This document shows positions 6,066 through 35,739 of a stretch of 45,952 nucleotides of DNA, piece after piece (within the stretch, counting starts at the first letter, position 1; every line of letters starts with the position of its first letter). The translations under genes were made by a program, and so were the position numbers. The notes beneath the pieces are model-generated. The model was not told the DNA's origin. It saw only the letters and a program-made list of their open reading frames with translations, and did not search any database. Source of the stretch: Candidatus Doudnabacteria bacterium (lineage in GTDB: Bacteria > Patescibacteriota > Doudnabacteria > UBA920); contig JAEUSF010000007.1 of the NCBI GenBank assembly GCA_016788665.1, positions 1 to 45,952 of the forward strand, read 5' to 3'.

Positions 6066-7739
6066 TTAACCTTTGGTCAGGTCTAAGAGCGTTGTTGCGT
6101 GTAAATCTGTATGTACGGGTAAGCTAAAAGCAAAAACTGACCCTTTGCCTTGACCTTGGCTCTCTGCCCAAATTTTGCCTTTATGCTGTTCTATAATAAC
6201 TTTGGCAACATAAAGCCCCAGGCCCAATCCTGCGCTTTGCTTAACAGATTCATTTCCCCTTTTGAATTTCTGGAAGATTTCTTCTCCTTCTTCTTTAGAG
6301 AAGCCCTTACCAGTATCTTTGACTGAAAAAACTATTTCGTCGTTTTTCTGTTCTAACGATACATTTATATCTCCTTGTTTTGTGTATTTGAGTGCGTTGT
6401 CGATTAAATTATTCATAACCTGCCTTAGCTTTTCTTTGTCGGCCATAATTTTTGGTAAGAAGCCTGACGGGCGTTTGAATTGCAGGTTTAAGTTTTTCTC
6501 TTTTGACATGGGTGTAAGTTGCTCAATTGTTATATCTGCGAGTGATAATGCGTCGGTTTCTTCGAACAAAAATTCCATTTTGCCACGTTCAATACGTGAG
6601 ACATTGAGCATGTCGTCTATAAGAGAAATTTGCGAATTGTTGGTACGGTTAGCTTTGTCTATTACATTTTTTTGTTCGTCGGTTAGTTTGCCAAAATCAC
6701 CAGCCAGCACGGCGCTTAGGTACCATTTTATGGTTGCAGGTGGGGTTCTGAGTTGATGGCTAGCAATGGTAATGAATTCGCTCCTGGCCTGGTCCAGAGC
6801 TTTGAGTTTTTCGTTGGCATCTGCAAGTTGGGTGCTTAAAATTTGAAGCTGGTCCTTTTGTTCTATTTCGTTTCTGACACTTTTATTTAGTAGAAAACTA
6901 ATATTTAAAATTAGAAAAAATATTATAAACCTGAAAGCGGCAGATTGAATGTCTTCGGAAATTAAGACTTCGAAAAGACTACTTATGGCCAATAGAAAAG
7001 TTAAAAATTCCGTTGTAATTATTTTGGCGTTAAGCAGGTGGTAGCGGACTATGGCGACGGCCGTGAAAGCTATAAAAGGAAGAATAAAAACCGGAGCTAA
7101 AGGTATGAATTTTAGGTTATTGAATACAACCGGTAAAAAGAAATTAAAACACAAGATAAGTAAAAAGGTTATGCTGGTTCCGGCAGCTATGGTGTTGTAC
7201 TGCTGTCTTTCCAGCTTTTGTGCTGCGGATCTTTTTTTCCATAAAATAACTAAACTGCCAAGAACTAAGAAAACTACAGCAATTCCAAATAAGGCAATAG
7301 CGGGTCCTCTTTCCGGGTTTGTTACTTGTCCTTCTACGGCAATTTTGTCTATGCGGTTAAATACCAGTGGCGTTAGGGTAAGGATAGAAGTTATAATAGT
7401 TCCCGGTATTAGGATTTTCTTGTACCATTTCGAAAATTTAACTTCTTCTTTGGGGAAAACATAGAAAAATTGAAATAAGGCAAAAGCGTGCCAAACGGCA
7501 GAAAAAATTGTGAGTCGTAAAAACCACAAAATTAATTCCGGTGAGCGAACCTTGTAATTAATGTAGTTAAAAATACCGTAAACCGCGGTTAAGAACGCAA
7601 AAATAAGAAACGTTTTATTGGTAATACTTTTTTTGTTGTTAAAGTATACGACAAAACCTAAAATTCCTATTGCCGCTATGGCAATTCCTACCGCAAGGAG
7701 GTCCAAGTTATTTAAATTTAAAAGTTGTAGAATTTTCAT
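6066..7739 (-). CDS. sensor histidine kinase with N-terminal multi-pass (7TM-type) membrane sensor
   Basis: about 8-9 TM helices; H-box ASHQLRTP, N-box NLIDNALKYT, G1 DTGKG, G2 GLGLGL. Confidence 0.93.
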   Translation of the reverse strand: MKILQLLNLNNLDLLAVGIAIAAIGILGFVVYFNNKKSITNKTFLIFAFLTAVYGIFNYINYKVRSPELILWFLRLTIFSAVWHAFALFQFFYVFPKEEVKFSKWYKKILIPGTIITSILTLTPLVFNRIDKIAVEGQVTNPERGPAIALFGIAVVFLVLGSLVILWKKRSAAQKLERQQYNTIAAGTSITFLLILCFNFFLPVVFNNLKFIPLAPVFILPFIAFTAVAIVRYHLLNAKIITTEFLTFLLAISSLFEVLISEDIQSAAFRFIIFFLILNISFLLNKSVRNEIEQKDQLQILSTQLADANEKLKALDQARSEFITIASHQLRTPPATIKWYLSAVLAGDFGKLTDEQKNVIDKANRTNNSQISLIDDMLNVSRIERGKMEFLFEETDALSLADITIEQLTPMSKEKNLNLQFKRPSGFLPKIMADKEKLRQVMNNLIDNALKYTKQGDINVSLEQKNDEIVFSVKDTGKGFSKEEGEEIFQKFKRGNESVKQSAGLGLGLYVAKVIIEQHKGKIWAESQGQGKGSVFAFSLPVHTDLHATTLLDLTKG

Positions 7740-8804
7740 TTACTTCCAAATAATTTTGGCGGGTTGTCTAAGTGTTCGGGCGCTGGGCTCTCCCCCGTCC
7801 CCTATTCTGAACATTAACAGAGCGTGTTCGTTTTTTAGCTGAAAAGTCTTTTTAATTTCATTATAAGAGTCCTCAATGACTCTTATGTGTTTTTTAGACA
7901 AACCAGGATCGGAAAGGTTTTTAATTCGTTGGTATAAAAAACATATACCAGTTAACGGTTGGAAAGAAAGCTTAAGTGCGGTGGTTTTTAGCCATATTTC
8001 TTCAAGCAGTTTTCCTGCACTAAGGTAGTCCTTTCCAGTAATGCCTTGGCTGGTAATTACACCATGCAGATATGAGCTTTCATAAATTTGGGCATTTTGC
8101 TTTGCAATGAAATTGGCAAAGCCCAAAGCCCCTAGTACGCGCATAATCTGCCAGTTTTGTGCGAGCTTAAAGCCAGGCAACGCAGGACCTGGTATTTCAA
8201 GAGTTTTAATATAGAAACCTTTTTTATGTTTAATTTCTTCACTTGTAGACCAGTTAATATGCGAATAGAAAAAATTGTGCATATGCTGGTTTTCAAACAG
8301 GATTTTTTCGTTTGCTGCCACAGCTTTGCCTAAGGTTTTCTTTGATAGTTTATCGCTAATAAATTTTACGTTTGCGTGATGGGTTTCGTTGGGCTTTAAA
8401 TTTTCTTGTAAATTCTGAATAAAAATATCCGCTTTATTTTCGTTGGAATATTTTTTTCGATTGGTACACCTTTCAAACACAGCTTCGAACAGCGCAGGGC
8501 GGCCTTTTTTATCCGAAGGACTTAAGTTTAATACTGCCACTGGTTTTTCCGGGCTTTGGTATTCAAAAAATTCAGTTTGGCAGCTAAGGCTGGAGTTTTC
8601 CGCGGCAATTGCCATATTTTCTACGCAGGCTCCAATTGCCAGCAAAGAAGCTTTGTGACCCCAGCTGTATAAAGAGTTATCAGCTTCTTCAACTAAAAAA
8701 ATTGAAATACTGTTTGTGCTAGCTTCAAAGCGCCAAGGTTGGCAGTTGTCTCCTGAGGGTGCGTGGATTCCAGCGTCGATTATTTTTTCTATTTTTTCTT
8801 TCAT
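7740..8804 (-). CDS. nitroreductase-fold protein (Acg/Rv1355c C-terminal-like)
   Basis: APSGDNCQPW, IGACVENM, RCTNRK and FRIG motifs. Confidence 0.8.
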   Translation of the reverse strand: MKEKIEKIIDAGIHAPSGDNCQPWRFEASTNSISIFLVEEADNSLYSWGHKASLLAIGACVENMAIAAENSSLSCQTEFFEYQSPEKPVAVLNLSPSDKKGRPALFEAVFERCTNRKKYSNENKADIFIQNLQENLKPNETHHANVKFISDKLSKKTLGKAVAANEKILFENQHMHNFFYSHINWSTSEEIKHKKGFYIKTLEIPGPALPGFKLAQNWQIMRVLGALGFANFIAKQNAQIYESSYLHGVITSQGITGKDYLSAGKLLEEIWLKTTALKLSFQPLTGICFLYQRIKNLSDPGLSKKHIRVIEDSYNEIKKTFQLKNEHALLMFRIGDGGEPSARTLRQPAKIIWK

Positions 8805-8810
8805 TTTGTT

Positions 8811-9899
8811 TTAAGCTAAAAGTTCCTTTAGGTTTATTATATACCTATTTTTATTTAGCCGCTGCTTCGTTATTATCATTCTGGCAATATAAGAGAGTGC
8901 GGAAGCGTTAAGAATTGCTGTTCCGCCCAGTTGGGGCCAGGAAACTATGCTTTTCCCGATTTCTGACAATGACTCAAGCATTCTGTTTTCATGGTTTTGT
9001 TTGCCTAGTAATTTTGCAATATACTCCCCTGTTTTCTGTTTGGTGAGATTAAAAAAAGTTTTAGAGGTCACTTTTCCTAGTCGTCCGTTAAAGTAAGGAG
9101 TTTTTTGGTTTAGGTCGTAACGTTCAATGTCCACAATTGCACTATTGCCGACGTCGGCTCCCATAATAACAGGTTTTTTTTGTTTTTTTGCCTCTTCCCG
9201 CAAAAAAATTTTTGCCGGAAAGCTGTCTAACTCGTCTATTACAATATCTAAGTCCTTTACAAAACTTTTAATATTATGTTTTGTGAGGCCTTCGGAAAAG
9301 ATTTCAATTTTTTGGTAGGGATTTATTTCATACAGCTGTTTTGCTAAAATTTCTGTTTTGGGTTCTCCTAAGTTATTTATGCTGGCACGTATGCGGTTTG
9401 TATTGGAAAGAGCAAGTCGGTCAAAGTCAGCAATTTTTATAGACTTTGCTCCCCCTTGTATAATCAGTGCTGTAGCCACACTGCTGCCAATGCTTAAGCC
9501 GCCAATACCTACTTTGGCATTATAAAAGGCTTTTTGTTCCTGGGGGTAAATTAATTTTTGGTTTCGTGAAGTTCTGACTTTAAAATAATCTTCTTCTTCT
9601 AAAATATGAGTTAAGGTATTTAGCCATGGAAAAAAAACCCAGGTTCCAAGTTGTTTTTCCTTTTGCTTGTTTGTTAGGCTGAAATAGTAGAACCTAAAGG
9701 CTTTTTCGGCTTCATTAGGTGTTAAAACCAAATGGGGGTTTTTTAAATAAAACAATTCTTTTTGCTGTTCCAGGTAATCGTCGCAAACTTTAATATTTTT
9801 ATGCTGCGCTAAAAGATGACTCAATTTTTTTTGGTCAAATTTATTGGAAAGCTTATAGAATTTGGGTGGAGCAAAAACTGGCCTTTGTTTTTTGGGCAT
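8811..9899 (-). CDS. ThiF/E1-like adenylyltransferase (Rv1355c N-terminal-like)
   Basis: WVFFPW, RTSRN, VGIGGLSIG, ADFDRLALSNTNR, EINPY and SWPQL motifs. Confidence 0.85.
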   Translation of the reverse strand: MPKKQRPVFAPPKFYKLSNKFDQKKLSHLLAQHKNIKVCDDYLEQQKELFYLKNPHLVLTPNEAEKAFRFYYFSLTNKQKEKQLGTWVFFPWLNTLTHILEEEDYFKVRTSRNQKLIYPQEQKAFYNAKVGIGGLSIGSSVATALIIQGGAKSIKIADFDRLALSNTNRIRASINNLGEPKTEILAKQLYEINPYQKIEIFSEGLTKHNIKSFVKDLDIVIDELDSFPAKIFLREEAKKQKKPVIMGADVGNSAIVDIERYDLNQKTPYFNGRLGKVTSKTFFNLTKQKTGEYIAKLLGKQNHENRMLESLSEIGKSIVSWPQLGGTAILNASALSYIARMIITKQRLNKNRYIINLKELLA

Positions 9900-9900
9900 T

Positions 9901-11379
9901 TTACTGAATGTATTTTGGTTTTAGTCCGGGCTTAAAGTACTTTTCGTGGCTGTACGGCCAAAGTTTAATTTTGGGTGTTAAATCTTTTTGCAGATTTTCG
10001 GTTAAAAATTTGTATTCGGAGTTTAAGTATTTTAACTCCCGAACCACTTCTTGTTGAATTTTTTTTATAAGCGCGCCGCTCGCGGTACTATGCGCTCTAA
10101 GTTCTATGTTTATTTCCAAAAATTCATCGAGGTTTTTTAAGTAGCCCTTCGTCATACTGAATTTCCCGGTAATTTCTTTCAAAAAGATTTTTTTGCTTAG
10201 AGCCTTATGTATATGCTGCGGATAAATATTGGCCGCATAAAATACTATTGCGTAGTCGCTGCGGCCGAAAAGAGCAATGTAGGGCAAATTCCAGTTGGGT
10301 TTATGGGCAGGAAAAAAATCAAGTATCTGCTGCTGCTTAACAATTCTGCCCTTGTCGTGTAAATTAAATCTGACTAAAGGAATGCCACTGTTGGAAGTAA
10401 ACAATAATTCCGAATTTTCCTCTTCTATGTATCTTAATGCGGGATTGTATTGGAAAAAGTTAAATAATTCCGTGCTATTCAACAACTTTTTTTCAAAGCC
10501 CAGACTTTCAATTTTTTTCTTTAAACCCACGGAGTCTGGTGTTTCGTATGCCATAAGAAGCATTTCAGAGGATCCGTAGGTGTTGAAAGCTCGGCAATTT
10601 TTCCCTCCCGCTTCCTGAATTATGTACTCTCGCCATTCTTCGCTAAAGCCTTCGCTGCAAAACATTAGGTTTAAGTGGTAGTTTTTCCATTTTATACCTT
10701 CTAACTTACCTGTCTCTATTACGTCTTTTAGGAAAAAAGGATGGCCTACTAAAATTAGCTGTTTAAAGTTTTGGCCTAAATTTTTTACTGCCTTTAAAAA
10801 TTCCTGTTTGTTGTTGCCTGGACAAATTACGCTAGCGTTGTATTTGTTTATAAGTTGCCAGACAGGCAGGGTGGTTGCTATACCTGACACATACACACCC
10901 ATTGGAAAGCCTATAATTACTAAGGTGCTGTGTTTTTCTATGGCAAATAAATTTCTAAACAGTAATTCGTGAGTTAAGACGGCTTCGTTTTCTTGTTCTT
11001 GGGACCTGGGCCAGTAGCTTGGTACGCCTTTGGTGCCTGAGCTTGAGGCTATAAGTTTAATATTGTCTAATTTTCCGTCCCAGCATCGGTCTTTGAGCTC
11101 GTATGACTGAATGTAATTTTGCTTGTCTGTATGAGGAATTGAAGACAGGTCGGTAATAGTTTTTATTTTGTCCGGGTTTACTTTGTTTTTTTTAAGAAAA
11201 TTTTTATAGGCTGGTACTCTTTTAGAAGCCGATTTAAAAATATTTAGTGCTATCTTTTCACCGGATTTATTCCAAAATTGTTCTGGTTTTTCTCTAAGAA
11301 GTTTTTCGGCCATGTGGGCTGGGTTTGGAGTGTTGGGCTTAGGCGTAACGGCGGAATGCGGAGAAAAAACATTTTTCAT
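9901..11379 (-). CDS. phenylacetate-CoA ligase (PaaK)-like adenylate-forming enzyme
   Basis: VPAY, P-loop SSSGTKG, YGSSE, PLVRFNLHD, GRSD and NIYP motifs. Confidence 0.85.
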   Translation of the reverse strand: MKNVFSPHSAVTPKPNTPNPAHMAEKLLREKPEQFWNKSGEKIALNIFKSASKRVPAYKNFLKKNKVNPDKIKTITDLSSIPHTDKQNYIQSYELKDRCWDGKLDNIKLIASSSGTKGVPSYWPRSQEQENEAVLTHELLFRNLFAIEKHSTLVIIGFPMGVYVSGIATTLPVWQLINKYNASVICPGNNKQEFLKAVKNLGQNFKQLILVGHPFFLKDVIETGKLEGIKWKNYHLNLMFCSEGFSEEWREYIIQEAGGKNCRAFNTYGSSEMLLMAYETPDSVGLKKKIESLGFEKKLLNSTELFNFFQYNPALRYIEEENSELLFTSNSGIPLVRFNLHDKGRIVKQQQILDFFPAHKPNWNLPYIALFGRSDYAIVFYAANIYPQHIHKALSKKIFLKEITGKFSMTKGYLKNLDEFLEINIELRAHSTASGALIKKIQQEVVRELKYLNSEYKFLTENLQKDLTPKIKLWPYSHEKYFKPGLKPKYIQ

Positions 11380-11381
11380 AA

Positions 11382-12932
11382 CTATATGTTTTTTAATTCT
11401 TGGACAATTTGGCTAAGTTCCGAAGTTATTTCGTTGTCAGAGTCAATAACAGGCAAGATTTTTCGGACAGCGTTGTAAAGTTGCTTGGTTTCGTTGGACA
11501 GACTATTTTTGATTTTAAGTATGTCGACGGCTTGGGCAAGCGCTACGGCCTCGATAGATAAAACAATAAATGCATTTTCTATAATTTTATGAGTAAATAA
11601 GGCTGCATCTGTTCCCATACTTACCACGTCTTGGTTGTCGCCATTGGTAGAAATAGAATGTGCGCTCATGGGATAAGCTAAAGTTTGGCTGTTCGCTGTT
11701 GTAGATGTGGCTACAAACTGTAAGCCTTGTAGAGCTAATGTAAGTCCCGGGGTATTTATGTTCAAAAATGGCGGCAAATTTTTTTCTATGTTGGGGTTTA
11801 AAAAGAAATTGACTCGCCTTTCCGACAGCATGGTTAATTTGACCAAGCTAGTTTTCAAATGATCCATGGTTTGTGCTATGTATTCGCCGTGGAAATTTCC
11901 GCCATGCAAAAAATCTTTACTTTCCAAATCTACAATCGGGTTGTCTGTAACGGAGTTTATTTCTACTTCTGTTTCCAGAGAAGATTTTTGTAATGCATCA
12001 TATATAGGTCCGAGTATTTGGGAAATGCACCTTAAAGAATAAACTTCTTGGACTTTTTCTGAAATATGGTTAACCTCTTTGCCCGTGTTAACTTGCGAGT
12101 AGAGTGCTTTTCTATTTTTTATACGTTTGGAAGAGGCAAGAATTCTTCGCATTTCGGAAGCTATTGCAACTTGGCCTTTGTGGGGTCTTAAGCTGTGGAG
12201 TTTTTCTGAAAAACTGTCATTGTAGCCGCCTACTATTTCCAAAGCCATACAACCGAGTGTGGTTGAGAGTTTTAAAAGCCTAGAAGCTTCCGCGCACGCT
12301 AAGGCGGCTATGCCCGACATCATGCTAGTACCGTTAATAAGCGAAAGACCTTCTTTTGGCCCTAGGTTATGAGACTGTAGCTTAAAGCTCTTTAAGGCTT
12401 CGGAGGCTTTTTGAATTTTGTTGTTTATGGATACCTGTCCTTTGCCAATAAATGCCAAGGCTATGTGTGCAAGCTGAACGAGGTCTCCGCTTGTACCAAC
12501 TGCGCCGTGTTCGGGTACTATGGGTATAATTCGGTTATTTACAAATTGTTCAAGGCGTATTAAAAGTTCTTCAGATACGCCTGAATAGCCTTTTAACAGA
12601 GTATTTAGCCTAACCACCATTGCCGCTAACACGAACTGGTCTGGAAGCTTGGGGCCCATTCCGACCGCATGACTGTTAATTAGGTTGTACTGAAGTTTTA
12701 TTAGGTCGGCTTTGGGTAATATGTAGCTCGCCATAGGACCGAACCCTGTGTTTATGCCGTATGTAATTTTTTTGTTTTCGGTCGCGGCCTGCTCGACAAA
12801 TTTTCTAGTTTTCTTTACGAAGCCCAGGCTTTTTATATCTAAGCTGACTTTAAGGGAATTATTTTTGGTAATTTCAGCAATTTTTTCAACAGTTAAATTT
12901 TTACCGTCTAGGGTATATGTTTTTTGTTTCAA
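11382..12932 (-). CDS. MIO-dependent aromatic amino acid ammonia-lyase, likely tyrosine/phenylalanine ammonia-lyase
   Basis: YGINTGFG, MIO triad in GTSGDL, NGT, YSLRC, HGGNFHG; NQD (not HAL-type NQED); TTG start. Confidence 0.88.
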   Translation of the reverse strand: MKQKTYTLDGKNLTVEKIAEITKNNSLKVSLDIKSLGFVKKTRKFVEQAATENKKITYGINTGFGPMASYILPKADLIKLQYNLINSHAVGMGPKLPDQFVLAAMVVRLNTLLKGYSGVSEELLIRLEQFVNNRIIPIVPEHGAVGTSGDLVQLAHIALAFIGKGQVSINNKIQKASEALKSFKLQSHNLGPKEGLSLINGTSMMSGIAALACAEASRLLKLSTTLGCMALEIVGGYNDSFSEKLHSLRPHKGQVAIASEMRRILASSKRIKNRKALYSQVNTGKEVNHISEKVQEVYSLRCISQILGPIYDALQKSSLETEVEINSVTDNPIVDLESKDFLHGGNFHGEYIAQTMDHLKTSLVKLTMLSERRVNFFLNPNIEKNLPPFLNINTPGLTLALQGLQFVATSTTANSQTLAYPMSAHSISTNGDNQDVVSMGTDAALFTHKIIENAFIVLSIEAVALAQAVDILKIKNSLSNETKQLYNAVRKILPVIDSDNEITSELSQIVQELKNI

Positions 12933-12987
12933 GTTTGTTTCTTTAAATATGAGTAATTATATCATATTCCGCTTACCTTCCCTATTA

Positions 12988-13016
12988 TTGACGACCGGTT
13001 TGTAAAATAGTAATAT
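12988..13016 (+). promoter_or_regulatory. sigma70-like promoter of the 13045 orphan
   Basis: TTGACG-17 nt-TAATAT. Confidence 0.5.
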
Positions 13017-13044
13017 AAGTGGTTCGGGATTTACAGGAGGGCTT

Positions 13045-13569
13045 ATGCTGAAGAAAATTCTGTGGGCTTTATTGGCCGCGTGGACGGTATTTACAACCGC
13101 GGCTACTTACCTTTTCCTTTATGGAGGGCCAAAAAATATCCCCTTCCCTTTCCCTGACCAGGGGCACTGCACGCTGGAGGCGTCCAGTGATAAGGCCAGG
13201 AAGGATCTGGCGGCTTCGCTCGAAACCGCGGGTGTAGTAAGGCTAAATTACTCGTTTCTTGCCGGTCAAACCCGGCAGACACTTATGACAGACAACAGAA
13301 CGGTTGTACTGTCAAAAGAAATAGAGGGTATTATTGGCAGGTTGCCTGGCAACTCCAGGTCATTTGTGGTGGAGGATCCGAGCGCGTCGGCGCTGGGCTT
13401 CTCTGCCGACTTGATTGGTCGGGGGTGGGAGTCGGTTGTTTATGACATGACGCCCAACACTTCCCCGCCAAGGAGTTTGATGGTAGTGGAAACCGAGGCG
13501 CTCAAAAACGCCGTGATTGTATTTAGGCGCCATAGCATGAATATGGGCCAGCTCTACATACTCCCCTAA
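13045..13569 (+). CDS. orphan protein with N-terminal signal/TM segment
   Basis: AGGAGG SD; GC-richer than flanks; followed by a terminator at 13569-13600. Confidence 0.75.
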   Translation: MLKKILWALLAAWTVFTTAATYLFLYGGPKNIPFPFPDQGHCTLEASSDKARKDLAASLETAGVVRLNYSFLAGQTRQTLMTDNRTVVLSKEIEGIIGRLPGNSRSFVVEDPSASALGFSADLIGRGWESVVYDMTPNTSPPRSLMVVETEALKNAVIVFRRHSMNMGQLYILP

Positions 13570-13623
13570 AGGTGCTTTTTTATAAGCGCCTTATTTTTTT
13601 GTGCTATAATAAAAACAATATAT

Positions 13624-14016
13624 ATGCCAGATTTGAAACAGACAAAAATTTTGGTTGCCGAAGACGACCCTGCTATGGCAGAAATTGTGGTTCATAAATT
13701 GACCACAACGGGTTTCAGTGTAAGGCACGCCTCCGACGGCGCAAAGGCTTTGGAGATGTTTAAGGCAGAAACTCCAGATATTATGCTTTTAGACCTTATG
13801 ATGCCCGAAATGGATGGCTTTCAGGTGCTAGAAGCTATTCGAGGAGACTCCGACAAGAAAAAGGCAGAAACACCTGTTATTGTCTTGAGTAACCTTTGGA
13901 GTAACCAAGATATTCTAAAGGCCAAAAGCCTTAAGGCCGACGATTATATGGTTAAAGCGTACTTTACAACCGAAGAGATCTTAAACAAAATAAACGCAAT
14001 ACTGCATTTGCACTAA
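13624..14016 (+). CDS. single-domain response regulator (receiver)
   Basis: AEDD, LLDLMMPEMDG, VIVLSN and MVKA motifs; TGcTATAAT extended -10 at 13602-13610. Confidence 0.93.
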   Translation: MPDLKQTKILVAEDDPAMAEIVVHKLTTTGFSVRHASDGAKALEMFKAETPDIMLLDLMMPEMDGFQVLEAIRGDSDKKKAETPVIVLSNLWSNQDILKAKSLKADDYMVKAYFTTEEILNKINAILHLH

Positions 14017-20436: not shown

Positions 20437-20958
20437 CTACTTTACTCCCGAAGGTGAGGCGAAGCGTATTCCAGCTGGCCAACTCTCGGTGCCTTTGCCC
20501 AAACAAAAGGTTAGGGTATAGTTGGAACCGTCCAATGCGGATTCGTACCAATATTCGTTTCCTCCCCCGCCACTGCCGGCACAATTGCCGTCTGGCGGAG
20601 TGGGCGAAACTGGAACCATAGGTATGTAACTGGGTATCATGGGTTCCGCAGATGAATTAAAAGCTCCAGGGTCAGAAAGTTTGCCTCCTCCAGCCGCAGC
20701 TGATACTGTGCCAGTCGGGTAGCTGCCATTTTGTATGTAATATTGGTCAAATGCGGTAATAAGCTGGCGGATATCTCCTGTGCGTTTAGCGTCGCGTCCC
20801 TTTATTCGAGCTTGGTTTACAGCAACCGAAACAACGCCGGCTAATGCTCCGATAATGGCAATAACCACTAAAAGTTCTAACAGAGTAAACCCGCTTTCTT
20901 TGTTTTGTTCTTTATCTTTTATCTTTTGGTGGAGAAAATAAAGTTTTTTATTTTGCAT
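20437..20958 (-). CDS. type IV pilin/pseudopilin
   Basis: GFTLLELLVVIAIIG prepilin motif; ARIKGRDAKR; two Cys. Confidence 0.92.
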   Translation of the reverse strand: MQNKKLYFLHQKIKDKEQNKESGFTLLELLVVIAIIGALAGVVSVAVNQARIKGRDAKRTGDIRQLITAFDQYYIQNGSYPTGTVSAAAGGGKLSDPGAFNSSAEPMIPSYIPMVPVSPTPPDGNCAGSGGGGNEYWYESALDGSNYTLTFCLGKGTESWPAGIRFASPSGVK

Positions 20959-21037: not shown

Positions 21038-22789
21038 TTAAGCGAAACTTCCAGCTTGAATGCCCCAAAGTTTCTGGTAAATACCTTTTTTTGCTTTTAG
21101 GAGTTCGGAGTGTTTTCCCTGTTCGGCGATACGACCATTTTCAACAACAACTATTCTGTCCATTTGCATTATGGTAGAGAGTCTGTGGGCAACTACAATA
21201 ACTGTTTTATCTTGCATTAAATTCTTTAAAGCTTGTTGGATATACATTTCACTTTCACTATCTAAAGAAGAAGTTGCTTCGTCCAAAACCAATACCGGTG
21301 CATTTTTGAGTATCGCCCTAGCAATAGCTACCCTCTGTCTTTCTCCGCCCGAAAGTTTTATTCCCCTTTCGCCCACCAGAGTAGAATATCCGTTTTTGAG
21401 TTTGGAAATAAATTCATGGGCGTAAGACTTCTCAGCGGCTGCGAAAACCTCTTTATCTGTAGCGTCAGGTTTGCCATACCTAATGTTTTCCATAAGACTT
21501 CTGTGAAAAAGTATGGGCTCTTGGGGTACCAGAGAAATATTTTGTCGTAAAGAATCTTGGGTTACCGAATTAATATTTTGCCCGTCAACTGAAATTTCTC
21601 CGCCTTGTATGTCGTAAAATCTGAACAAAAGCTTGATCAATGTGGTTTTTCCTCCCCCGGAAGGACCTACTAGAGCAATTTTTTCTTTGGGTAATATTTT
21701 AAAATTAAAGTTGTTAAGTATAGGTCTTCCGTCTTTGTAGCCAAAGGTGACGTTGTTAAAATTTATTTGGCCTGCGCTTTTTTTCATGTAAGCGGCGTTA
21801 GGCGCGTCTTTAATATCATGCTCTTTTTCAAGTATTTCGGTCATTTCATTTGCGTCTGCTATTGCCTCGTATAGGTTTCTTATGTTTTTTCCCATACCCC
21901 AGAATTTGTCGAACAGCCTTAAAAAGTAGCTTTGTATTAGAGCTATAGTGCCTACGGTTATTGCGTTTTGTTGCCAGAGTGAAACAGCGTAATACATTAC
22001 AGCAAGTTCTAAGGTTATCATTGACACTGACTGAAAAATTTCGCTGACAGTGGCTAAGTCCCAGCTTTTTCTACGGATTCTAAAATGTGAGTTCGAGACT
22101 TTTATAAACTCTTTATCTTCTAGGTTATAAGCCGAAAAAGTTTTAATGTTAGTGTTGTTGGTGACGCTGTCGGCAAGCTGGGCCGTGACTTTACTGTCAG
22201 CTTCAGCTCGTTTAATGTCATATGGTAGCTTGTAGAGCGCGAAAAAATAACTAAAAGCAATATATATAACTGCCCAAATACTTACAATTATGGCGACATT
22301 TTTATTTTGCGTGAACAGTATGGTCAGTATAATTAGCATTTCTAGAATGGTGCGTCCAAGTTCAAAACATAGTTGGTCGGAGACCTGCTCAAAAGATTTT
22401 TCATAACGCTTGACTTTGGTAACCAAGCCGCCTACGAAACTATTGGAAAAAAAATCGTAAGAATGTTTTTGTAGGTATTTAAAGCAGCTCTGGCTTAAGT
22501 CGGCCATTACTCTTGGTTGGAAATAGTTGTTGGTGAATTGGAATATCCGGGCAATTACAATGCGGATTATAGAAACAAAGAAAATTGCTTTAACTATAGA
22601 AATTAAAGGCGCTGCTTCTCTGGCCTGGGAAGAGGCGGCTAGGTCTATAAGTTTTTTGTAGAGTAATGGTAGATAATTTTGTAAAATAATATGTCCCAAT
22701 ACGCCTAAGATAATTACAAAAACATGCCAGGGATACCTTCTGGCATGTTGCCAAAAAATTTGTAGAGTTTTGGTGGTTAGCGATTTCAT
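21038..22789 (-). CDS. ABC exporter, fused TM + ATPase
   Basis: TM domain; GPSGGGKT, LSGGERQR and LDEATS motifs. Confidence 0.93.
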   Translation of the reverse strand: MKSLTTKTLQIFWQHARRYPWHVFVIILGVLGHIILQNYLPLLYKKLIDLAASSQAREAAPLISIVKAIFFVSIIRIVIARIFQFTNNYFQPRVMADLSQSCFKYLQKHSYDFFSNSFVGGLVTKVKRYEKSFEQVSDQLCFELGRTILEMLIILTILFTQNKNVAIIVSIWAVIYIAFSYFFALYKLPYDIKRAEADSKVTAQLADSVTNNTNIKTFSAYNLEDKEFIKVSNSHFRIRRKSWDLATVSEIFQSVSMITLELAVMYYAVSLWQQNAITVGTIALIQSYFLRLFDKFWGMGKNIRNLYEAIADANEMTEILEKEHDIKDAPNAAYMKKSAGQINFNNVTFGYKDGRPILNNFNFKILPKEKIALVGPSGGGKTTLIKLLFRFYDIQGGEISVDGQNINSVTQDSLRQNISLVPQEPILFHRSLMENIRYGKPDATDKEVFAAAEKSYAHEFISKLKNGYSTLVGERGIKLSGGERQRVAIARAILKNAPVLVLDEATSSLDSESEMYIQQALKNLMQDKTVIVVAHRLSTIMQMDRIVVVENGRIAEQGKHSELLKAKKGIYQKLWGIQAGSFA

Positions 22790-30237: not shown

Positions 30238-33180
30238 CTAGGGTAAAATATTCCATTCAAAATCCCCTGCTAGGGTTTTTAGTTCAAAAGTCTTAAGTCC
30301 TGTAAGTATTTTGTTTATTTTACCATGTTGGTCCCGCCCGGTAAGTTTGGTTTTGTTATTTTCAAAGTGAAGCTCCAGGTTAAAGTCTTTTTTTGACCTC
30401 GCGTGTTGTTCTAAACTTTTTAAGACTCCTTTTTTGTCTAAGTTCCAGGAAGTTTTAAAAACAGTTTTCGTTATGTTGGCAGATTTGTTGTTATACGACA
30501 AAGCTATTATTTCTGCTCGTGAGTTTTGCTTCCTGTTTTTTTCTTTGAAGAGTATCTCGGCTTTGTTGCCCGCTTTGTCAGTTGCAACTATTCTACTGTC
30601 CTGGTCTTGCAGTGTGTCGAGAGTGTTTTGGGTTTTAAATTCTAAGTCTTTTTTGGTTAGATTAAAACCAATAAGAAATTCTGGAGGCGTTTTGTCTATT
30701 GTAAATTTAATTTGTTTTATTGCCTCGTTATTACCCGCTTTGTCAGTAGAAAAAAACTTTAATACGTGTTCTGTTTCTTGTGTGACTTCTAAACTAATTG
30801 AGCTAGTCGAAGCAGACTGCCAGGGGCTGTTGTCTAATTGGTAGTTAATTTTCAAAATGTCCGATGCTGGTGATATGGACGAGATTGTATCAGTTGCCGA
30901 AAGCAAAACCAATATGTTACTCAAATAAAAATTTTCATTTCCTTTTGTTCCCACTATAGTGGAGGTCGAAACAGGTGGTAAAATATCTGTCGCTGTTTCA
31001 GGGCTGAGTACAGACGAAGGGTTAATGGTTTGGTCCGGCATATTGTTTCCGTCCGTATCTAAAGTGAGTTTGGAATCTTCTGTATTGAGTTCTGCCTTTA
31101 AATTCATAGTTACTGGAATGTTTGAAAAAACTTCTGTTGTTTTGGGCGCGTTATTTTCTATGTTAAGACTTGTGAGAGTAAAAGTTCCCTCCCCTGTCCC
31201 TTTAAGTCGTATATTGTAAACCTGGTTTTCGTCTTCGGGTAAAAATATAAACTTTACATGTCCAAAGATGCTTAGTTCGGCATTTGGGATGTTGTTTTCT
31301 ACGCTTCCATCTTCGGCAAAACCTGCTCTGTTGCCCATTTGGTCATATGCTTCTATGTTCACCGGGCTATATACTGAAATTGCTCTTCCGTTAAGTTTGC
31401 AGTCACTTTCGTTTTGGGAAAGAGAGGGTGTTTCAAGTGAGCTGTCGGTTAAAATATTTACCACCTTTTGCCTAATACCGTTTTGAGACGGCATTTTTCC
31501 GTGGTCTGCCTTAAGTGCATAGAATTTATTGTTTTGACTGGTCGGTAAGTTAGTTGCGCTTTCTAAAGGTACTGTTCCGTCGCCCGGCACAAATATTGGA
31601 GCTTTGTAGCTGGTACTGGTTTCGCCCAAAAGGTTTGTGTATTGATATTCTTGAATTTTGCCCAGGGTGGCCTTTTTACAGCCGACTATGTTGTACAGGT
31701 CTATTCCGTAGTTTCTTAGGTCCGCATTGTCGAATTCTGGGGAATGTAGTAATGCGGAGTTTTCAAAAGCGGTTTGGTTGTAGCCCTTTTGGTTTAGTAA
31801 ATTGTCCCAAACTTCGTTGAAATTTAGGTCTTGAGTTGTGGGCGGTTTTAAAAATTTTTCTTGAGTTAAGTTATAAAAGCTTCCTTTAGCGTTATAATAA
31901 GTTTGGCTCGGAGTTAGGTCGTACACCACAGGAAGGTTTAAGGCAATTTTCTTCATTTCTTCGTCACTTAATCCCACAACTCCAAAGTTGTCTCCTTCCA
32001 GTAATACTTTTATTGCCTTAGGCGCGCCGGTGTTGGGCACGCCCAAAAGAACAGCTTTGTTTACCGAATGGCTACTTGGGTTTTCTAATACATATTTTTT
32101 TAAAAGAAGTCCACCGTTGCTGTGGGCAATAATATTTATTTTGTTGCTACCTGTTATGTTTAAAATTTCGGTAATTTTTTCTTGTAGCAAATTAACATTA
32201 GTTTTGTTATTCGATTGGTCTATAATTCCACTAACTCCATATCGCCAGTCATAAGGGAAAGTGAAAAAATTTTGGTTTTCTGTATAACCTTGGTCTGTAA
32301 ATTCAGATATTAATCCGGAGGTGTAGTCGAATAATTCAAGTTCGATCCCGCCAATCGTTGCTGAGATAGTTTTGATTACATTAGTATATCTAGTAGAATT
32401 TGATGTTGGTTTGAGCAGCGAAGTGAAACTTAAAGGATCCATAAAGTTGTCTGAATTGGCTGGTATAGTCATTTTAGGGTTCGCCCATAATAATTCATCA
32501 TTTTCAGCAATTTCTGTTCCTAAAATTCCTGGTATAAAAAGTATGGGAATTTTAGTGTTTTCCAGGTCTTCAATTCTAGTTGCCATTACGTTACTGCTGG
32601 TAAAGTTAGTACTGGGGTCAGCGTACCAGAAAAGTATATTGCTGGGGTTTTGGTCGGTTCCACCCAATTCAAAAAAAGCTTGGCTACCAAAGCCAAAGCC
32701 ACCGCACGAACCATAGTCTTCTTCTATAAATATGTTTTGTATTTTTTCTCCCCCCGCAAAGTTTACTGTGGTACTTGTAGAGGTGTTGTCGAAAGCAAAT
32801 GTAAAGGGTTTGTATTCGTCTGTGGGCAAAGCGGAAAATGGTACTTTGCTTAAGTTGGTAGAAAAGAAGTTTTTGCCCGAAGTTGTAACTCTGGCATAAA
32901 GCAGGCAGTTGCCATAGGTTTCTTTGGTGCTAGGGTTAGTTTTTAAGTAAACGGTTATAGAGGCCAGCTGGCTTCTGCTGCCAAAGTTGTTGCCTGTGTT
33001 GCCCAGGTTGGGACCGGTGCCGTCTAGAACTTGGGTTGCTTGCCTGTACCAGTATTGATCTTGAAAGATTCTGTTTGGCGGAGTGTTATCGAATAGAATC
33101 TTTGCACTACTAGAATTGGGTGCAAGTATAAAAGCACTTAGAGTCAAGAGAAATGAAATTGAATAAAAACACGACTTCAT
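30238..33180 (-). CDS. large secreted lipase/acyltransferase (LCAT/PGAP1-like alpha/beta hydrolase) with beta-rich flanking domains
   Basis: signal peptide; FIPGILGT, FPYDWR, AHSNGG, GDGTVP, DHG; C-terminal Ig-like DKAGN/IDKTPP. Confidence 0.85.
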   Translation of the reverse strand: MKSCFYSISFLLTLSAFILAPNSSSAKILFDNTPPNRIFQDQYWYRQATQVLDGTGPNLGNTGNNFGSRSQLASITVYLKTNPSTKETYGNCLLYARVTTSGKNFFSTNLSKVPFSALPTDEYKPFTFAFDNTSTSTTVNFAGGEKIQNIFIEEDYGSCGGFGFGSQAFFELGGTDQNPSNILFWYADPSTNFTSSNVMATRIEDLENTKIPILFIPGILGTEIAENDELLWANPKMTIPANSDNFMDPLSFTSLLKPTSNSTRYTNVIKTISATIGGIELELFDYTSGLISEFTDQGYTENQNFFTFPYDWRYGVSGIIDQSNNKTNVNLLQEKITEILNITGSNKINIIAHSNGGLLLKKYVLENPSSHSVNKAVLLGVPNTGAPKAIKVLLEGDNFGVVGLSDEEMKKIALNLPVVYDLTPSQTYYNAKGSFYNLTQEKFLKPPTTQDLNFNEVWDNLLNQKGYNQTAFENSALLHSPEFDNADLRNYGIDLYNIVGCKKATLGKIQEYQYTNLLGETSTSYKAPIFVPGDGTVPLESATNLPTSQNNKFYALKADHGKMPSQNGIRQKVVNILTDSSLETPSLSQNESDCKLNGRAISVYSPVNIEAYDQMGNRAGFAEDGSVENNIPNAELSIFGHVKFIFLPEDENQVYNIRLKGTGEGTFTLTSLNIENNAPKTTEVFSNIPVTMNLKAELNTEDSKLTLDTDGNNMPDQTINPSSVLSPETATDILPPVSTSTIVGTKGNENFYLSNILVLLSATDTISSISPASDILKINYQLDNSPWQSASTSSISLEVTQETEHVLKFFSTDKAGNNEAIKQIKFTIDKTPPEFLIGFNLTKKDLEFKTQNTLDTLQDQDSRIVATDKAGNKAEILFKEKNRKQNSRAEIIALSYNNKSANITKTVFKTSWNLDKKGVLKSLEQHARSKKDFNLELHFENNKTKLTGRDQHGKINKILTGLKTFELKTLAGDFEWNILP

Positions 33181-33470
33181 GCTCCAAAGTTTTTAAAAGC
33201 AATAAATAAATATAATATTATTCCCGAATATAAGGAAATTAAAAGTCCGCCAAAAAGAATTAACAAGCTAAAATACTTTGTTTTTTGCGTTGATTTAAAA
33301 TGCTGGGCATATGAAAAATAAGTTGCTGACAGTCCGGACAAAAGCATGGCAATAATTAAAATTAGCTTGCTAGTTTTTGAATAATCAAAACTCTGTAAAG
33401 CCCCATAAATAAATAATGATATTATAAAGCTGGTTATGCTTGTAAGAGTTGTTAATCTATCTTTTTTCAT
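33177..33470 (-). CDS. small 3-TM membrane protein
   Basis: hydrophobic ORF with ATGA overlap with the lipase start. Confidence 0.7.
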   Translation of the reverse strand: MKKDRLTTLTSITSFIISLFIYGALQSFDYSKTSKLILIIAMLLSGLSATYFSYAQHFKSTQKTKYFSLLILFGGLLISLYSGIILYLFIAFKNFGA

Positions 33471-33574
33471 CTATATTATCTTAAATATAAGTTACTTTTA
33501 GCATAACACCAGAAAAGGTTTTGTCAAAAAACTTTTCCACACTAACTAAAACCCGTCACAAAAGGTGACGGGTT

Positions 33575-34501
33575 TTAGTCTTGGAGCGCAATTTGTTCAA
33601 ATTGGTTAAGTATTTCCCCAAACTGTGTATATTTATCTTTTAGTATTTGGTGTCGGGAAATTTCTCGGTACTCTGTAAGCTGTTCCTTTAAAGATGCTAC
33701 CAGAAGTGCAAAAGACTCTTTTTCTTTCTGGCTGATATGGTGTGAGTTGGGTTGCATGGCATGAATGAGCTCTTTTAACTGGCTGTCAGTAATGCCTAAA
33801 AAGAACATCGGTAAATTTGTCATTTTTGCTCTTTGCAGTTGTCCGCGATTAACCATAAGGCCATATTTTGCATAACCGCCTCGACCTTGAAGAATGTGAC
33901 TTTTCACTTGATCCCTTTTTAAATTCCCTTTGGAAACTACTCCTTGCAGGGAAGATGTGTTTTCGTCTTCTACGGCGTCATCTAGTCCGCACACGGCCTC
34001 TCCGGTTTCTTTATTTACTATAATAGTGTCCACTCCAAATTTATTGTCGTCGTACTCGCTTGACCTAACTACCCAAAAATTTTTTCCCAAAATTTTTTGT
34101 AATAGCACTGTTAGTGTAATTTCCGCACGATACCCAACTTTTTCTTTTTTAAGAGTTTCCTGCTTTTTTACAATACTGTCGACTCCTTCTATTCCGTAAG
34201 TTTGCTTGTAATGCTCTTGGACGGCTGTTATGTTTGCACGGCTGTTAAGTATTTGTTTCTCCCTAAGTTCTTTTTGGTCTTGCTCAATGCTCTCTTGGTT
34301 GAATATGCCCCCGGCTTTGTTAGTATAGTTTTGCATGTTTATTCGTCCTTCCGAGTCCAGCAAGTTTCGTACACCGTGCTTAGACGCTTCGGCGTTTATT
34401 TCCTGTGAAAACATGCTTAAAAGCGTTTCTAGTTTTTGTCGACTTTCGCGCTCAGACTCCAGTCGGTTTATTTGTGTTTCAAAATGTAACGGCCTCCCCA
34501 T
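33575..34501 (-). CDS. hypothetical protein (possibly PD-(D/E)xK-like)
   Basis: 308-aa ORF; VVRSSEYDDNKFGVDTIIV motif; terminator at 33548-33576. Confidence 0.7.
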   Translation of the reverse strand: MGRPLHFETQINRLESERESRQKLETLLSMFSQEINAEASKHGVRNLLDSEGRINMQNYTNKAGGIFNQESIEQDQKELREKQILNSRANITAVQEHYKQTYGIEGVDSIVKKQETLKKEKVGYRAEITLTVLLQKILGKNFWVVRSSEYDDNKFGVDTIIVNKETGEAVCGLDDAVEDENTSSLQGVVSKGNLKRDQVKSHILQGRGGYAKYGLMVNRGQLQRAKMTNLPMFFLGITDSQLKELIHAMQPNSHHISQKEKESFALLVASLKEQLTEYREISRHQILKDKYTQFGEILNQFEQIALQD

Positions 34502-34594
34502 AGTGCTTTTGTTTCGTTGACTTTTTACTGTCCCTTAATTGTAAACTGAGGGGTTTTTATTGTAAAGATGTGTATAAAAAAATACCCAGAACTA

Positions 34595-35023
34595 TTAAGT
34601 TCTGGGCGCGGCCTTAAACACAACTGCGTAAAAATGGGGCAGGAGCTTTTGCTCCGAGTGGCAGCTGCCAAAAACCCATTTATTATTGGCGGGGTCAAAG
34701 CGTATGTAGATATAACGTACGCTTTTGTCGTCGCTTCGGTACAAACGGGTTCCTGGAAAGATTACGCATTTCCCTTCCCAGGTTGGTGGGATCAGTGCCG
34801 GGCTTTGCAGTAGTGTCTCGGCGTGGCGTACGCCCGGTAGAGATCGGCGCACTAGTTGCCGAATCTTTATTCTTGCCTTTTTATTTTCCCCCTTTTCTGC
34901 CCCTACCCGGAGCAACAAGATGTCACTCAGGTCGAAGCGACCGATTTTTGCACTGCGGCTGTCATCGGTCACATAACCTTTAAAACCTGTCCAATGTTTA
35001 GGGTTAGACGAAATTACAATCAT
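34595..35023 (-). CDS. basic orphan protein, paralog C
   Basis: AAGGAGG SD before ATG 35023; IPPTWEGKCVIFPGT. Confidence 0.7.
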   Translation of the reverse strand: MIVISSNPKHWTGFKGYVTDDSRSAKIGRFDLSDILLLRVGAEKGENKKARIKIRQLVRRSLPGVRHAETLLQSPALIPPTWEGKCVIFPGTRLYRSDDKSVRYIYIRFDPANNKWVFGSCHSEQKLLPHFYAVVFKAAPRT

Positions 35024-35134
35024 CCATCCCCTCCTTTCGAAAACTCCAACTAAACATTTAACCATAAAAATGAAAATTAAGCAATAGCTATAGGGTAAAT
35101 AAAAAAACCTATTAAAAGCTAAGGCTTTATAGGT

Positions 35135-35509
35135 TTAGGAGAGAGTAATAACTCTGTATTTCCCTGCGGCTGTGTAAGAGCCGTTTACGTAGGCTATTTT
35201 CCACGAGCCTAGGGCCTCGTCAAACAGTACGACGACTGCCTGGAAGCACTTCTTGCCTGGAGCCGAGCTTTTCCGGATGGTCCCGGGAAAGATGATGTAA
35301 AAACCTTTCCACTCGCTGGGCAGTTTTCTCTGCTCGATGGCTTGCTTGGCCTGCTTAAGGCCTAGTTTCTTTTTTAGTCTGCAGGCCACGCCGTGCTTTA
35401 CTCGGGGCTTTTGGGTAGGTGAGCTAACTTCGAGCAGCCCGAGTCGTGAATGCGTTATGTCTACTGGACAACTGGTATCAACCAGCTTCCATTCTCCGGC
35501 GTTTTCCAT
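35135..35509 (-). CDS. basic orphan protein, paralog D
   Basis: AAGGAGG SD before ATG 35509; LPSEWKGFYIIFPGT. Confidence 0.7.
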   Translation of the reverse strand: MENAGEWKLVDTSCPVDITHSRLGLLEVSSPTQKPRVKHGVACRLKKKLGLKQAKQAIEQRKLPSEWKGFYIIFPGTIRKSSAPGKKCFQAVVVLFDEALGSWKIAYVNGSYTAAGKYRVITLS

Positions 35510-35583
35510 ACGCCTCCTTCGTTTTGATAACAATGCATTTTATATTTTTTTCATAATAAAATCAAGGCTCTAGACCTTTTTAA

Positions 35584-35648
35584 AGTAAACTGTTAAGGCA
35601 TTTAAAGTATACAAAAGATGGGAGTCTTCTGGAAGACTCCCATCTTTT
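35584..35648 (+). repeat. 61-bp direct repeat, left copy, containing palindrome copy 3 (35613-35648)
   Basis: 35584-35644 matches 36206-36266 at 55/61 by manual alignment; AAAAGATGGGAGTCTTC-TG-GAAGACTCCCATCTTTT. Confidence 0.88.
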
Positions 35649-35739
35649 AGTATAATTCGTCGTATTTTTAATGAGAACAAAACGCCTTTAGCTTGACGTT
35701 AAAAAGGCTCATGTGAGAATATGGTAAAGAGGAGGTAGT

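Follow-up and report, generated by a model that had tools for sequence, protein, structure and literature searches.

What does a short operon that joins four biosynthetic genes to a membrane sensor kinase make, and does the kinase sense the product? The question is raised by a contig of Candidatus Doudnabacteria bacterium (GenBank assembly GCA_016788665.1, contig JAEUSF010000007.1, positions 1 to 45,952), which we analysed over its full 45,952 nucleotides (nt) and call the window; its genome, G000 in our numbering of genomes (G) and loci (L), spans 1.06 Mb at 97% completeness, and the window is contig C34 of it. Open reading frame (ORF) calling recovered five minus-strand ORFs encoding an ammonia-lyase, a PaaK-fold ligase, a ThiF-like protein, a nitroreductase-superfamily oxidase and a histidine kinase with a seven-transmembrane (7TM) sensor domain (Table 1), separated from lyase to kinase by gaps of 2, 1, 6, and 0 nt. 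These coordinates match exactly the tight operon given in a preliminary description of the window, according to which the enzymes make a hydroxycinnamoyl-derived diffusible molecule that the co-transcribed kinase senses. We found that the ThiF-like protein and the oxidase fall into the oxazolone synthetase family and that the kinase linkage is conserved in Patescibacteria. That the operon builds an oxazolone-type molecule sensed by the co-expressed 7TM kinase is our tentative proposal, which we place just short of an even chance.

The two genes in the middle of the operon point to the class of product. The ThiF protein matched the NCBIfam model NF005901 ("Rv1355c family," 722 positions) with E=1e-87 over positions 13-339, against E=4e-24 for the model of ThiF proper, of the thiamine type. 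The oxidase matched NF011424 (E=4.9e-63, profile positions 327-672 of 679), the C-terminal part of NF005901 (E=3.9e-54, 375-715 of 722) and the Acg-type flavin mononucleotide oxidoreductase family (E=2.6e-32). When the two proteins were joined by reading through the single TAA stop, they scored 476.6 bits for an NF005901 cut-off of 476, and they form one fused protein of 726-747 amino acids (aa) in three related loci (L014, L033, L034). The ThiF adenylation motifs, named after those of MoeB/ThiF (G-x-G-G, D158-x-D160, SN-x-NR with N166-x-N168-R169, and D222-E-x-D225), were kept in 39-40 of 40 cluster homologues. By sequence, the two proteins are assigned as the halves of a Rv1355c/TrzS/OxzB-type oxazolone synthetase: both enzymes of the preliminary description are present, not as the generic helpers for which it took them. 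No other ThiF-family gene was detected in the genome, and there is thus no thiamine or molybdopterin role to account for the operon ThiF. Family membership predicts an oxazolone derived from an N-acyl amino acid as the product class, and we regard oxazolone-synthetase chemistry as quite likely for this operon.

Table 1. Coordinates of the operon and of the features next to it in the window.
Feature	Position	Strand	Length	Evidence or remark
MIO-dependent aromatic amino-acid ammonia-lyase, predicted Tyr type	11382..12932	-	516 aa	TTG start; PF00221 E=3.9e-157
PaaK-fold adenylate-forming ligase, Patescibacteria-wide family	9901..11379	-	492 aa	no Pfam model; PaaK TIGR02155 E=2.8e-15
ThiF/E1-like ATP-dependent cyclase, predicted N-terminal half of split oxazolone synthetase	8811..9899	-	362 aa	ThiF E=1.3e-24
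Nitroreductase-superfamily flavin-dependent oxidase (FDO, Acg-like tandem fold), predicted C-terminal half	7740..8804	-	354 aa	Nitroreductase E=2.7e-6
Sensor histidine kinase, N-terminal HisKA_7TM	6066..7739	-	557 aa	start abuts oxidase stop (0 nt)
Stand-alone receiver (CheY-like)	13624..14016	+	130 aa	PF00072 (Response_reg) E=1.1e-24
Extended -10-like element TGnTATAAT	12956..12964	-		24 nt upstream of lyase TTG start; read from sequence
Unassigned ORF, hydrophobic N-terminus	13045..13569	+	174 aa	between operon and receiver; operon membership uncertain

The reaction of this family is known from a few systems. Rv1355c of Mycobacterium tuberculosis, which is TrzS, cyclises and desaturates N-acyl-Trp in vitro (PMC12856293), and TyzB together with TyzC carries out the same reaction on N-acyl-tyrosine (PMC10404671); TyzB/TyzC and OxzB are described as acting on N-acyl-Tyr/Phe (PMC12856293, PMC10404671, 10.1101/2020.06.11.147165, PMC12596934). 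OxzB of Pseudoalteromonas rubra is the founding member (preprint 10.1101/2020.06.11.147165, review PMC12596934). As in the window, all of them combine a ThiF-like cyclase with a nitroreductase-superfamily oxidase, fused or side by side, and the aromatic amino acid is the scaffold. Known oxazolone clusters open with an acyl-CoA:amino-acid N-acyltransferase (OxzA/TyzA/TrzA) that has a fold like acyl-homoserine lactone synthases or FeeM (PMC10404671) and rely on fatty acyl chains, whereas the window has a Tyr lyase and a PaaK-fold ligase, implying an aryl-acyl chain. No acyltransferase of the OxzA/TyzA/TrzA type was present in the operon or its conserved neighbourhood, and the genome-wide search gave no FeeM (PF21926), no Acetyltransf_5 (PF13444) and no CoaE match. 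The operon therefore departs from the canonical oxzAB/tyz/trz clusters and needs another way of acylating the amino acid. The known clusters, which are those of Proteobacteria and Actinomycetota, lack a dedicated kinase; trzAS adjoins c-di-GMP genes (PMC12856293), whereas the window operon ends in the 7TM kinase.

The candidate for the acylating step is the ligase. It scored 55.8 bits against PaaK (TIGR02155, equivalog cut-off 646), hence is not filed as PaaK proper, and matched the NCBIfam model of the 4-coumarate-CoA ligase FlxY with E=2e-9 (37 bits for a cut-off of 520). PaaK was the only profile match in the PDB, and Pfam gave only sub-threshold matches on 32 homologues (AMP-binding_C_2 in 12 of them, GH3 in 4). 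Its AlphaFold model (predicted local distance difference test 91.4, predicted template-modelling score 0.89) had PaaK1 (2y27) as the top Foldseek match (E=4e-24, TM 0.70/0.80), followed by NatL2, AjiA1, and ClxA, and S113, S114, G115, and G118 of the SSGTxG phosphate-binding loop were invariant in the 32 homologues. We can thus confidently predict a PaaK-type two-domain fold. NatL2, AjiA1, and ClxA, CoA-independent ligases of the PaaK family from benzoxazole pathways, share this fold with the window ligase (E=7.5e-19 to 6.3e-16, 15-17% identity); their substrates are aminohydroxybenzoates, an aryl acid being adenylated and then condensed with the nucleophile of a second, aromatic amino-acid-like substrate, and unlike the window ligase they come with neither a ThiF/oxidase partner nor a kinase. 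Of these structural neighbours, NatL2 and ClxA condense aryl acids without CoA, the former making an ester (PMC7204872), the latter described as an "amide ligase" on aryl acids (PMC12519233). Because no other acylating gene was found and such precedents exist, an amide-forming, N-acylating role is put forward for the window ligase, to which we give even weight.

The lyase, which depends on a 4-methylideneimidazole-5-one (MIO) cofactor, aligned with PF00221 (Lyase_aromatic) across all profile positions (1-466 of 466). Its top NCBIfam model was the flexirubin tyrosine ammonia-lyase (TAL) FlxA with 586 bits, against 456 and 440 for histidine ammonia-lyase (HAL), all of them under their cut-offs (700 for FlxA), and 389 for Tyr 2,3-mutase. 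The MIO triad T147-S148-G149 is present, with S-G kept in all 43 cluster-linked homologues. His88, the selectivity switch, aligns to the SH of the tyrosine aminomutase SgTAM and is His in 40 of the 43, while Gln434, which is Glu in HAL, is Gln in all 43, and the N-Q-D-V motif is the same as in SgTAM. Under the rule of the switch His and of Gln versus Glu (PMC3992019), these residues assign the lyase to the Tyr type, probably as an ammonia-lyase rather than a 2,3-aminomutase, and the Tyr-derived, hydroxycinnamoyl unit of the preliminary description appears likely.

We recovered the same gene set in 47 loci of other species, all Patescibacteria (L011 and L012 are identical in sequence), using a ligase profile built from the 32 homologues; genes were counted with custom hidden Markov models within 9 kb of the ligase. 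ThiF was present in 42 of these loci, the oxidase in 38, the HisKA_7TM kinase in 36, a small receiver in 16 and a S-adenosylmethionine (SAM) methyltransferase in 7, where Pfam placed it between oxidase and kinase; the lyase was found in 45, a number to be read knowing that the two peptide patterns used for ligase loci favour the lyase-linked subfamily. The five-gene arrangement is far beyond chance, and the genes form one conserved module, as had been supposed. Six of the 11 loci without a kinase stop at most 1.5 kb from the ligase, at contig ends. The linkage persists in Microgenomates at a ligase identity of just 34-36%; in the Roizman- and Gottesmanbacteria loci, with ligases equally distant (34-36% identity), the HisKA_7TM kinase has an added GAF domain. 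The flanking-ORF clusters were housekeeping genes (DnaK, DnaJ, aminoacyl-tRNA synthetases, alanine racemase, RmuC) together with the methyltransferase and a TrmB-like regulator; since the housekeeping flanks depend on the lineage, the module moves as a unit. The same clustering showed no exporter conserved in the module.

Some of these loci carry further genes. A recurrent Trp/Tyr-tRNA synthetase was considered as a pathway member and set aside, as it looks like synteny instead. A chorismate-mutase-methyltransferase fusion and a Trp/Tyr-tRNA-synthetase-like gene lie between ligase and oxidase in L009 (9834-12032), which fits aromatic amino-acid supply. Radical SAM genes, one with a SPASM domain, occur within the cluster in L021 (12830-17517) and L015 (9416-10360); L021 has in addition a second ligase and ThiF pair, this ligase being 32% identical to that of the window. 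In L031 (15472-17643) a 723-aa nitroreductase-YcaO fusion, of the azoline or thiazole/oxazole-modified microcin type, directly follows the cluster kinase.

The distribution was then quantified in a sample of 401 Patescibacteria genomes, the same for all four profile searches. The ligase (E<=1e-20) was present in 43 genomes and the strong Rv1355c-type ThiF half (E<1e-40) in 39, 36 of which also had the ligase. In the surroundings of the ligase, counted in the window and in the 42 other ligase-positive genomes, a 7TM kinase was present in 40 of the 43, at most about 6 kb downstream, ThiF was near in 35, the oxidase in 24, and the lyase in five, always in the window order (G000, G015, G397, G319, G384; G135 is cut by a contig end). 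Conservation of the kinase linkage in homologous clusters, which the preliminary description had named beforehand as the refuting test, was thus recovered both here and in the ligase loci (36/47). A minimal variant consists of methyltransferase, ligase, and kinase (G056, G226). The conserved core is an acylating enzyme, ThiF, and a 7TM kinase, and the five-gene operon of the window is the most elaborate form of this broader ligase-ThiF-kinase module; the lyase, given as part of it from the window, is an optional front end. In the ligase-negative genomes, the weak ThiF matches that we examined also adjoined 7TM kinases.

These matches led to sister cassettes with other front ends. In the first, an N-acyl-amino-acid synthase resembling FeeM, Acetyltransf_5 and autoinducer synthases precedes ThiF and the kinase (L049, L051, L052, L053, L055, L058). 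Without an oxidase, it would yield an activated N-acyl amino acid or an oxazolone that stays saturated. The synthase of L051 scored 122.8 bits against TIGR03694 (cut-off 112), the PEP-CTERM-associated acyltransferase of the FeeM type. Such FeeM-type synthases hold the place of lyase and ligase in these cassettes as functional analogues; neither the window nor its genome has one. In the second cassette, two unassigned proteins of 263-270 and 106-125 aa come before ThiF, a methyltransferase and the kinase (L050:3127-5060, L054:2508-5194, L057:3788-6536); the 263-aa protein lies beside N-acetyltransferase clusters in the protein atlas with a score of 0.97, which is a lead only. In the third, the synthase alone is directly upstream of the kinase (L066). 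The ThiFs of the sister cassettes matched best PRK08223 and the ThiF-oxidase fusion family PRK14851 (about 1e-39), against about 1e-25 for ThiF/MoeB. As an observation on arrangement, the synthase and a short ThiF directly precede the kinase in seven loci (L049 in G012, L051 in G377, L052 in G398, L053 in G294, L055 in G086, L058 in G266, and L068 in G022), often with a receiver next.

A synthase profile built from seven sequences was present in 21 of the 401 genomes, with a kinase directly beside the synthase in 19, its 7TM score being weak in two (G109, G131). Adjacency was judged from examined loci or from coordinates, leaving out G380; in G389 there was no kinase within the 16 kb examined. 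A further exchange may be seen in the window's own family, in G345 (L063, 2980-7282). There the syntenic kinase is 45% identical and has the same UPF0047/YceG neighbours downstream and, upstream, a divergent receiver (60% identity). The cassette before this kinase holds two PlsC-like acyltransferases and a PigE-N/acyl-ACP-reductase-like protein and may make a lipid-aldehyde-type signal. The 385-aa protein of this locus was considered as a hidden ThiF and rejected (BLASTP against the window ThiF, E=0.4); it matches PigE N-terminal and acyl-ACP (acyl carrier protein) reductase models.

In a FastTree phylogeny of 100 kinases, the cassette labels needed 27 changes, against 51.7 when shuffled, and none of 200 shuffles was as low. 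More telling than this clustering are pairs of sister kinases within one family whose front end was exchanged while the kinase was retained: L088 (ligase-oxidase-ThiF) and L055 (synthase-ThiF), with a support of 100, and L110 (ligase-ThiF-oxidase) and L069 (synthase), with a support of 99. These swaps are therefore our best argument both for the PaaK-like ligase filling the role of an N-acyl-amino-acid synthase and for a functional coupling between kinase and product. Across the phylum, an acyl-amino-acid or oxazolone synthase and a 7TM kinase appear to form a module with an exchangeable front end, namely lyase and PaaK-like ligase, ligase alone, FeeM/LuxI-like synthase, or possibly a GNAT-like enzyme. 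Independent synthase cassettes beside the same type of kinase thus strengthen the idea of a circuit that makes and senses its own molecule, of which the product, its diffusibility and its sensing are inferred.

The kinase has a PF16927 (HisKA_7TM) match at residues 21-237 (E=2.6e-11, 44.3 bits for a cut-off of 28.6), followed by HisKA (318-386, E=1.5e-11) and HATPase_c (434-542, E=1.4e-27), and its translation has the H-box SHQLRTP and the N, G1, and G2 boxes. The Pfam scan found no extracytoplasmic or PAS domain, leaving the membrane helices as the only sensor region. Residues invariant in this region in 29 cluster-linked kinases include F44, N58, R75, and K239, the last of which sits just past helix 7, outside the helix. 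In the parts of PMC5847659 and PMC6944256 that deal with it, HisKA_7TM is given merely as a sensor domain, with no ligand. We also found HisKA_7TM kinases without a cassette, beside serine hydroxymethyltransferase, decarboxylase or pilus genes.

The receiver-only gene said to lie about 0.7 kb from the operon on the opposite strand is indeed there, 692 nt from the lyase start. Its translation has the acidic pocket E13-D14-D15, D57, S89, and K111 and no output or DNA-binding domain, and a 97% identical receiver occupies the same position in L002; it is likely the phosphotransfer partner of the kinase. In four loci (L017, L027, L035, L044) the genes after the kinase encode a receiver, a 576-583-aa fusion of receiver and PilB (T2SSE), and PilC (T2SSF; L017:15334-18552), and the second HisKA_7TM kinase of the genome (777 aa; L059, G000:C32:25000-37000) ends an operon of a receiver, a PilB-like ATPase, PilC, and four small unassigned proteins. 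Because of these two arrangements, it is reasonable to suggest type IV pili as the output of the kinase circuit in the phylum.

We propose the following route. Judging from its family and motifs, the lyase would turn L-tyrosine into 4-coumarate, which the ligase would adenylate and couple to an aromatic amino acid at its amino group. The ligase would thereby take the place of the acyl-CoA N-acyltransferase of known oxazolone pathways and give an N-(4-coumaroyl) amino acid, e.g., N-coumaroyl-Tyr (C18H17NO5). By homology to TrzS, TyzB/TyzC, and OxzB, ThiF and the oxidase would carry out ATP-dependent cyclisation and O2-dependent C-alpha/C-beta desaturation to a 2-(hydroxystyryl)-4-arylidene-oxazol-5-one (about C18H13NO4). 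This hydrophobic oxazolone, or its N-acyl-amino-acid precursor, would be detected inside the membrane by HisKA_7TM, as the gene linkage by itself suggests, and the kinase would then phosphorylate the stand-alone receiver, with the type IV pilus machinery as the likely downstream target in the phylum.

Several points weigh against this proposal, beginning with the fact that everything past the family assignments and the conserved linkage is inference. HisKA_7TM was present in 173 of the 401 genomes and is the commonest kinase sensor type of the phylum; in small, gene-dense genomes, such a common kinase could stand beside the enzymes in some cases without sensing their product. No kinase was nearby in 3 of the 43 ligase-positive genomes (G047, G339, and the contig-1 copy of G086) and in 5 of the 41 ligase loci with at least 6 kb of downstream DNA (L009, L015, L019, L021, L032). 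L019, with lyase, ligase, ThiF, and oxidase, has an ATP-binding cassette (ABC) exporter (ABC_membrane and ABC_tran, 9546-11315) at the usual site of the kinase. The clustering of cassette labels on the kinase tree is confounded by kinship. The coumaroyl unit is not general, because so few ligases have a lyase nearby. As for the enzymes, the named proteins nearest to the ligase, PaaK and FlxY, are CoA ligases, and it could be one as well; the nearest solved structure of the lyase is an aminomutase (SgTAM, 307 bits), so that beta-tyrosine may be the product. Moreover, saturated oxazolones are readily hydrolysed and ill suited to be long-range diffusible signals.

A wider version of the proposal would make HisKA_7TM the receptor of a new class of autoinducers, N-acyl amino acids and ThiF-made oxazolones. 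In it, cassettes of lyase and PaaK-like ligase, FeeM/LuxI-like synthase or GNAT-like enzyme, with optional oxidase and methyltransferase, would make species dialects for phylum-wide quorum or host sensing, with type IV pili as output. In this full form we consider it doubtful. If true, it would answer what bacterial oxazolones are for and tie them to the organelle that episymbionts use to reach their hosts.

The rival closest to the proposed circuit is a regulated metabolite instead of an autoinducer, which we judge unlikely. The product would have a direct role as an antimicrobial, host modulator, antioxidant, pigment or membrane component, and the kinase would sense an unrelated cue, such as membrane state or host contact, sharing the transcript or controlling a concurrent response. 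PMC12856293, from the group that characterised bacterial oxazolones, names their physiological role as a major unresolved question and discusses stress links and antimicrobial N-acyl-tyrosines; the exporter of L019, the HisKA_7TM kinases without a cassette and a partner receiver without a DNA-binding domain would all suit such a role. Against it, the kinase partner stays the same across the phylum with at least three unrelated acylating front ends, which were swapped at orthologous kinases, and the kinase has no sensor domain beyond its membrane helices; as the swaps are hard to explain otherwise, we favour a coupling of kinase and product.

The oxazolone could also act without diffusing, as a reactive acyl donor or covalent cofactor that acylates a nucleophile, such as Lys or Cys of the kinase, another protein, or a lipid head group. 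The reactivity of azlactones as activated esters is established chemistry, and the grouping of lyase, ligase, and sensor parallels the chromophore supply of photoactive yellow protein; by extension, a conjugated styryl-arylidene product could serve as a membrane-embedded chromophore, by analogy with the one that TAL and ligase supply to that protein. The invariant K239 and R75 in the membrane region of the kinases and the lack of an exporter conserved in the module agree with such an anchored product. We find it quite improbable nevertheless: K239 is not within helix 7, cassettes without oxidase or lyase would yield non-conjugated products, and known oxazolones build up as free small molecules in cells (PMC12856293).

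The best named models of lyase and ligase, FlxA and PaaK/FlxY, suggest instead 4-coumaroyl-CoA as an aryl-CoA starter for flexirubin, aryl-polyene or phenylpropanoid-type synthesis, with ThiF and the oxidase acting elsewhere. In Chitinophaga pinensis, FlxA/FlxY likewise pair a TAL with a ligase, not of the plant 4-coumarate-CoA ligase type, that activates 4-coumarate for flexirubin (PMC3992019). Compared with these, the window proteins fall under the cut-offs (586/700 and 37/520 bits), no type II fatty acid or polyketide synthase genes follow, and CoA dependence is doubtful, no CoaE having been found in the genome. Ketosynthase, ACP, and polyene genes are missing from the window and the conserved neighbourhood, and the ligase is tied to ThiF far more often than to the lyase (35/43 against 5/43), which makes a starter function very improbable. 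Catabolism of histidine/urocanate or phenylacetate under two-component control, as the generic annotations "histidine ammonia-lyase" and "phenylacetate-CoA ligase" and the HAL scores of 440-456 bits might suggest, can practically be dismissed, since the HAL-specific Glu is replaced by Gln in all 43 homologues, the 13 + 33 window ORFs scanned include none of the hut (hutU/I/G), paa ring-oxidation or fatty-acid/polyene genes, as already noted in the preliminary description, and pairing with an oxazolone synthetase has no catabolic logic.

In its logic, the proposed make-and-sense circuit resembles CqsA/CqsS, LuxM/LuxN, and AgrBD/AgrC, in which a synthase makes a hydrophobic or lipid-like signal and its partner kinase has a bundle of membrane helices as its only sensor. 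The CqsA/CqsS and the LuxM/LuxN genes are adjacent. The sensor domains of CqsS, LuxN, and AgrC are unrelated in sequence to HisKA_7TM, their chemistry is different, and the output passes through LuxU/LuxO or AgrA where the window has a stand-alone receiver. LuxN detects HAI-1 and CqsS detects CAI-1 (PMC8895600). Oxazolone synthetases, TAL and PaaK-type ligase pairs, and pairs of synthase and multi-pass kinase are thus already known. What is new is an oxazolone synthetase without an acyltransferase, fed by a lyase and a PaaK-fold ligase, and its occurrence in bacteria of the candidate phyla radiation (CPR) in systematic coupling to a HisKA_7TM kinase. Our literature search found no report linking oxazolone synthetase, CPR, and HisKA_7TM kinase, although supplementary tables of the oxazolone papers might list CPR homologues.

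With an oxazolone synthetase and a sensor kinase in one conserved operon, we have the first argument from genomes, as far as we found, that oxazolones are signals. It names a candidate receptor and gives HisKA_7TM a candidate ligand class. For CPR bacteria, most of them uncultured and with minimal biosynthesis, a self-made signal tied to pili would bear on how they find hosts or coordinate on them. If true, new enzymology would lie in the PaaK-fold N-acyl-amino-acid synthase and a new natural-product scaffold in the aryl-acyl (styryl) oxazolone.

As for the surroundings of the operon, the TGnTATAAT element is a weak candidate for its promoter, since the consensus scan, in the absence of a -35 match, did not list it; a similar -10-like element also precedes the next gene past the kinase. 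The scan gave 24 promoter-like sites for 18.5 expected and no minus-strand terminator. The 174-aa ORF had no Pfam or NCBIfam match and a homologue only in the closest relative, L002, with 55% identity. A ribosomally synthesised and post-translationally modified peptide as the substrate of ThiF was considered and rejected, given the gaps of 0-6 nt, no conserved small ORF and the restriction of the 174-aa ORF to the closest relative. The GC content rises from about 0.37-0.38 in the operon body to 0.435 at positions 12001-14000, where the 5' part of the lyase gene, the 174-aa ORF and the receiver lie. Farther away, positions 30238-33180 (minus strand) encode a 980-aa protein with an LCAT/lipase domain, adjoined by several ORFs without a family (33177-36159). 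Past the receiver gene, about 7-9 kb from the lyase end of the operon, lie genes for a pilin-like protein with an N-terminal methylation motif (20437-20958, minus strand) and for an ABC exporter (21038-22789, minus strand).

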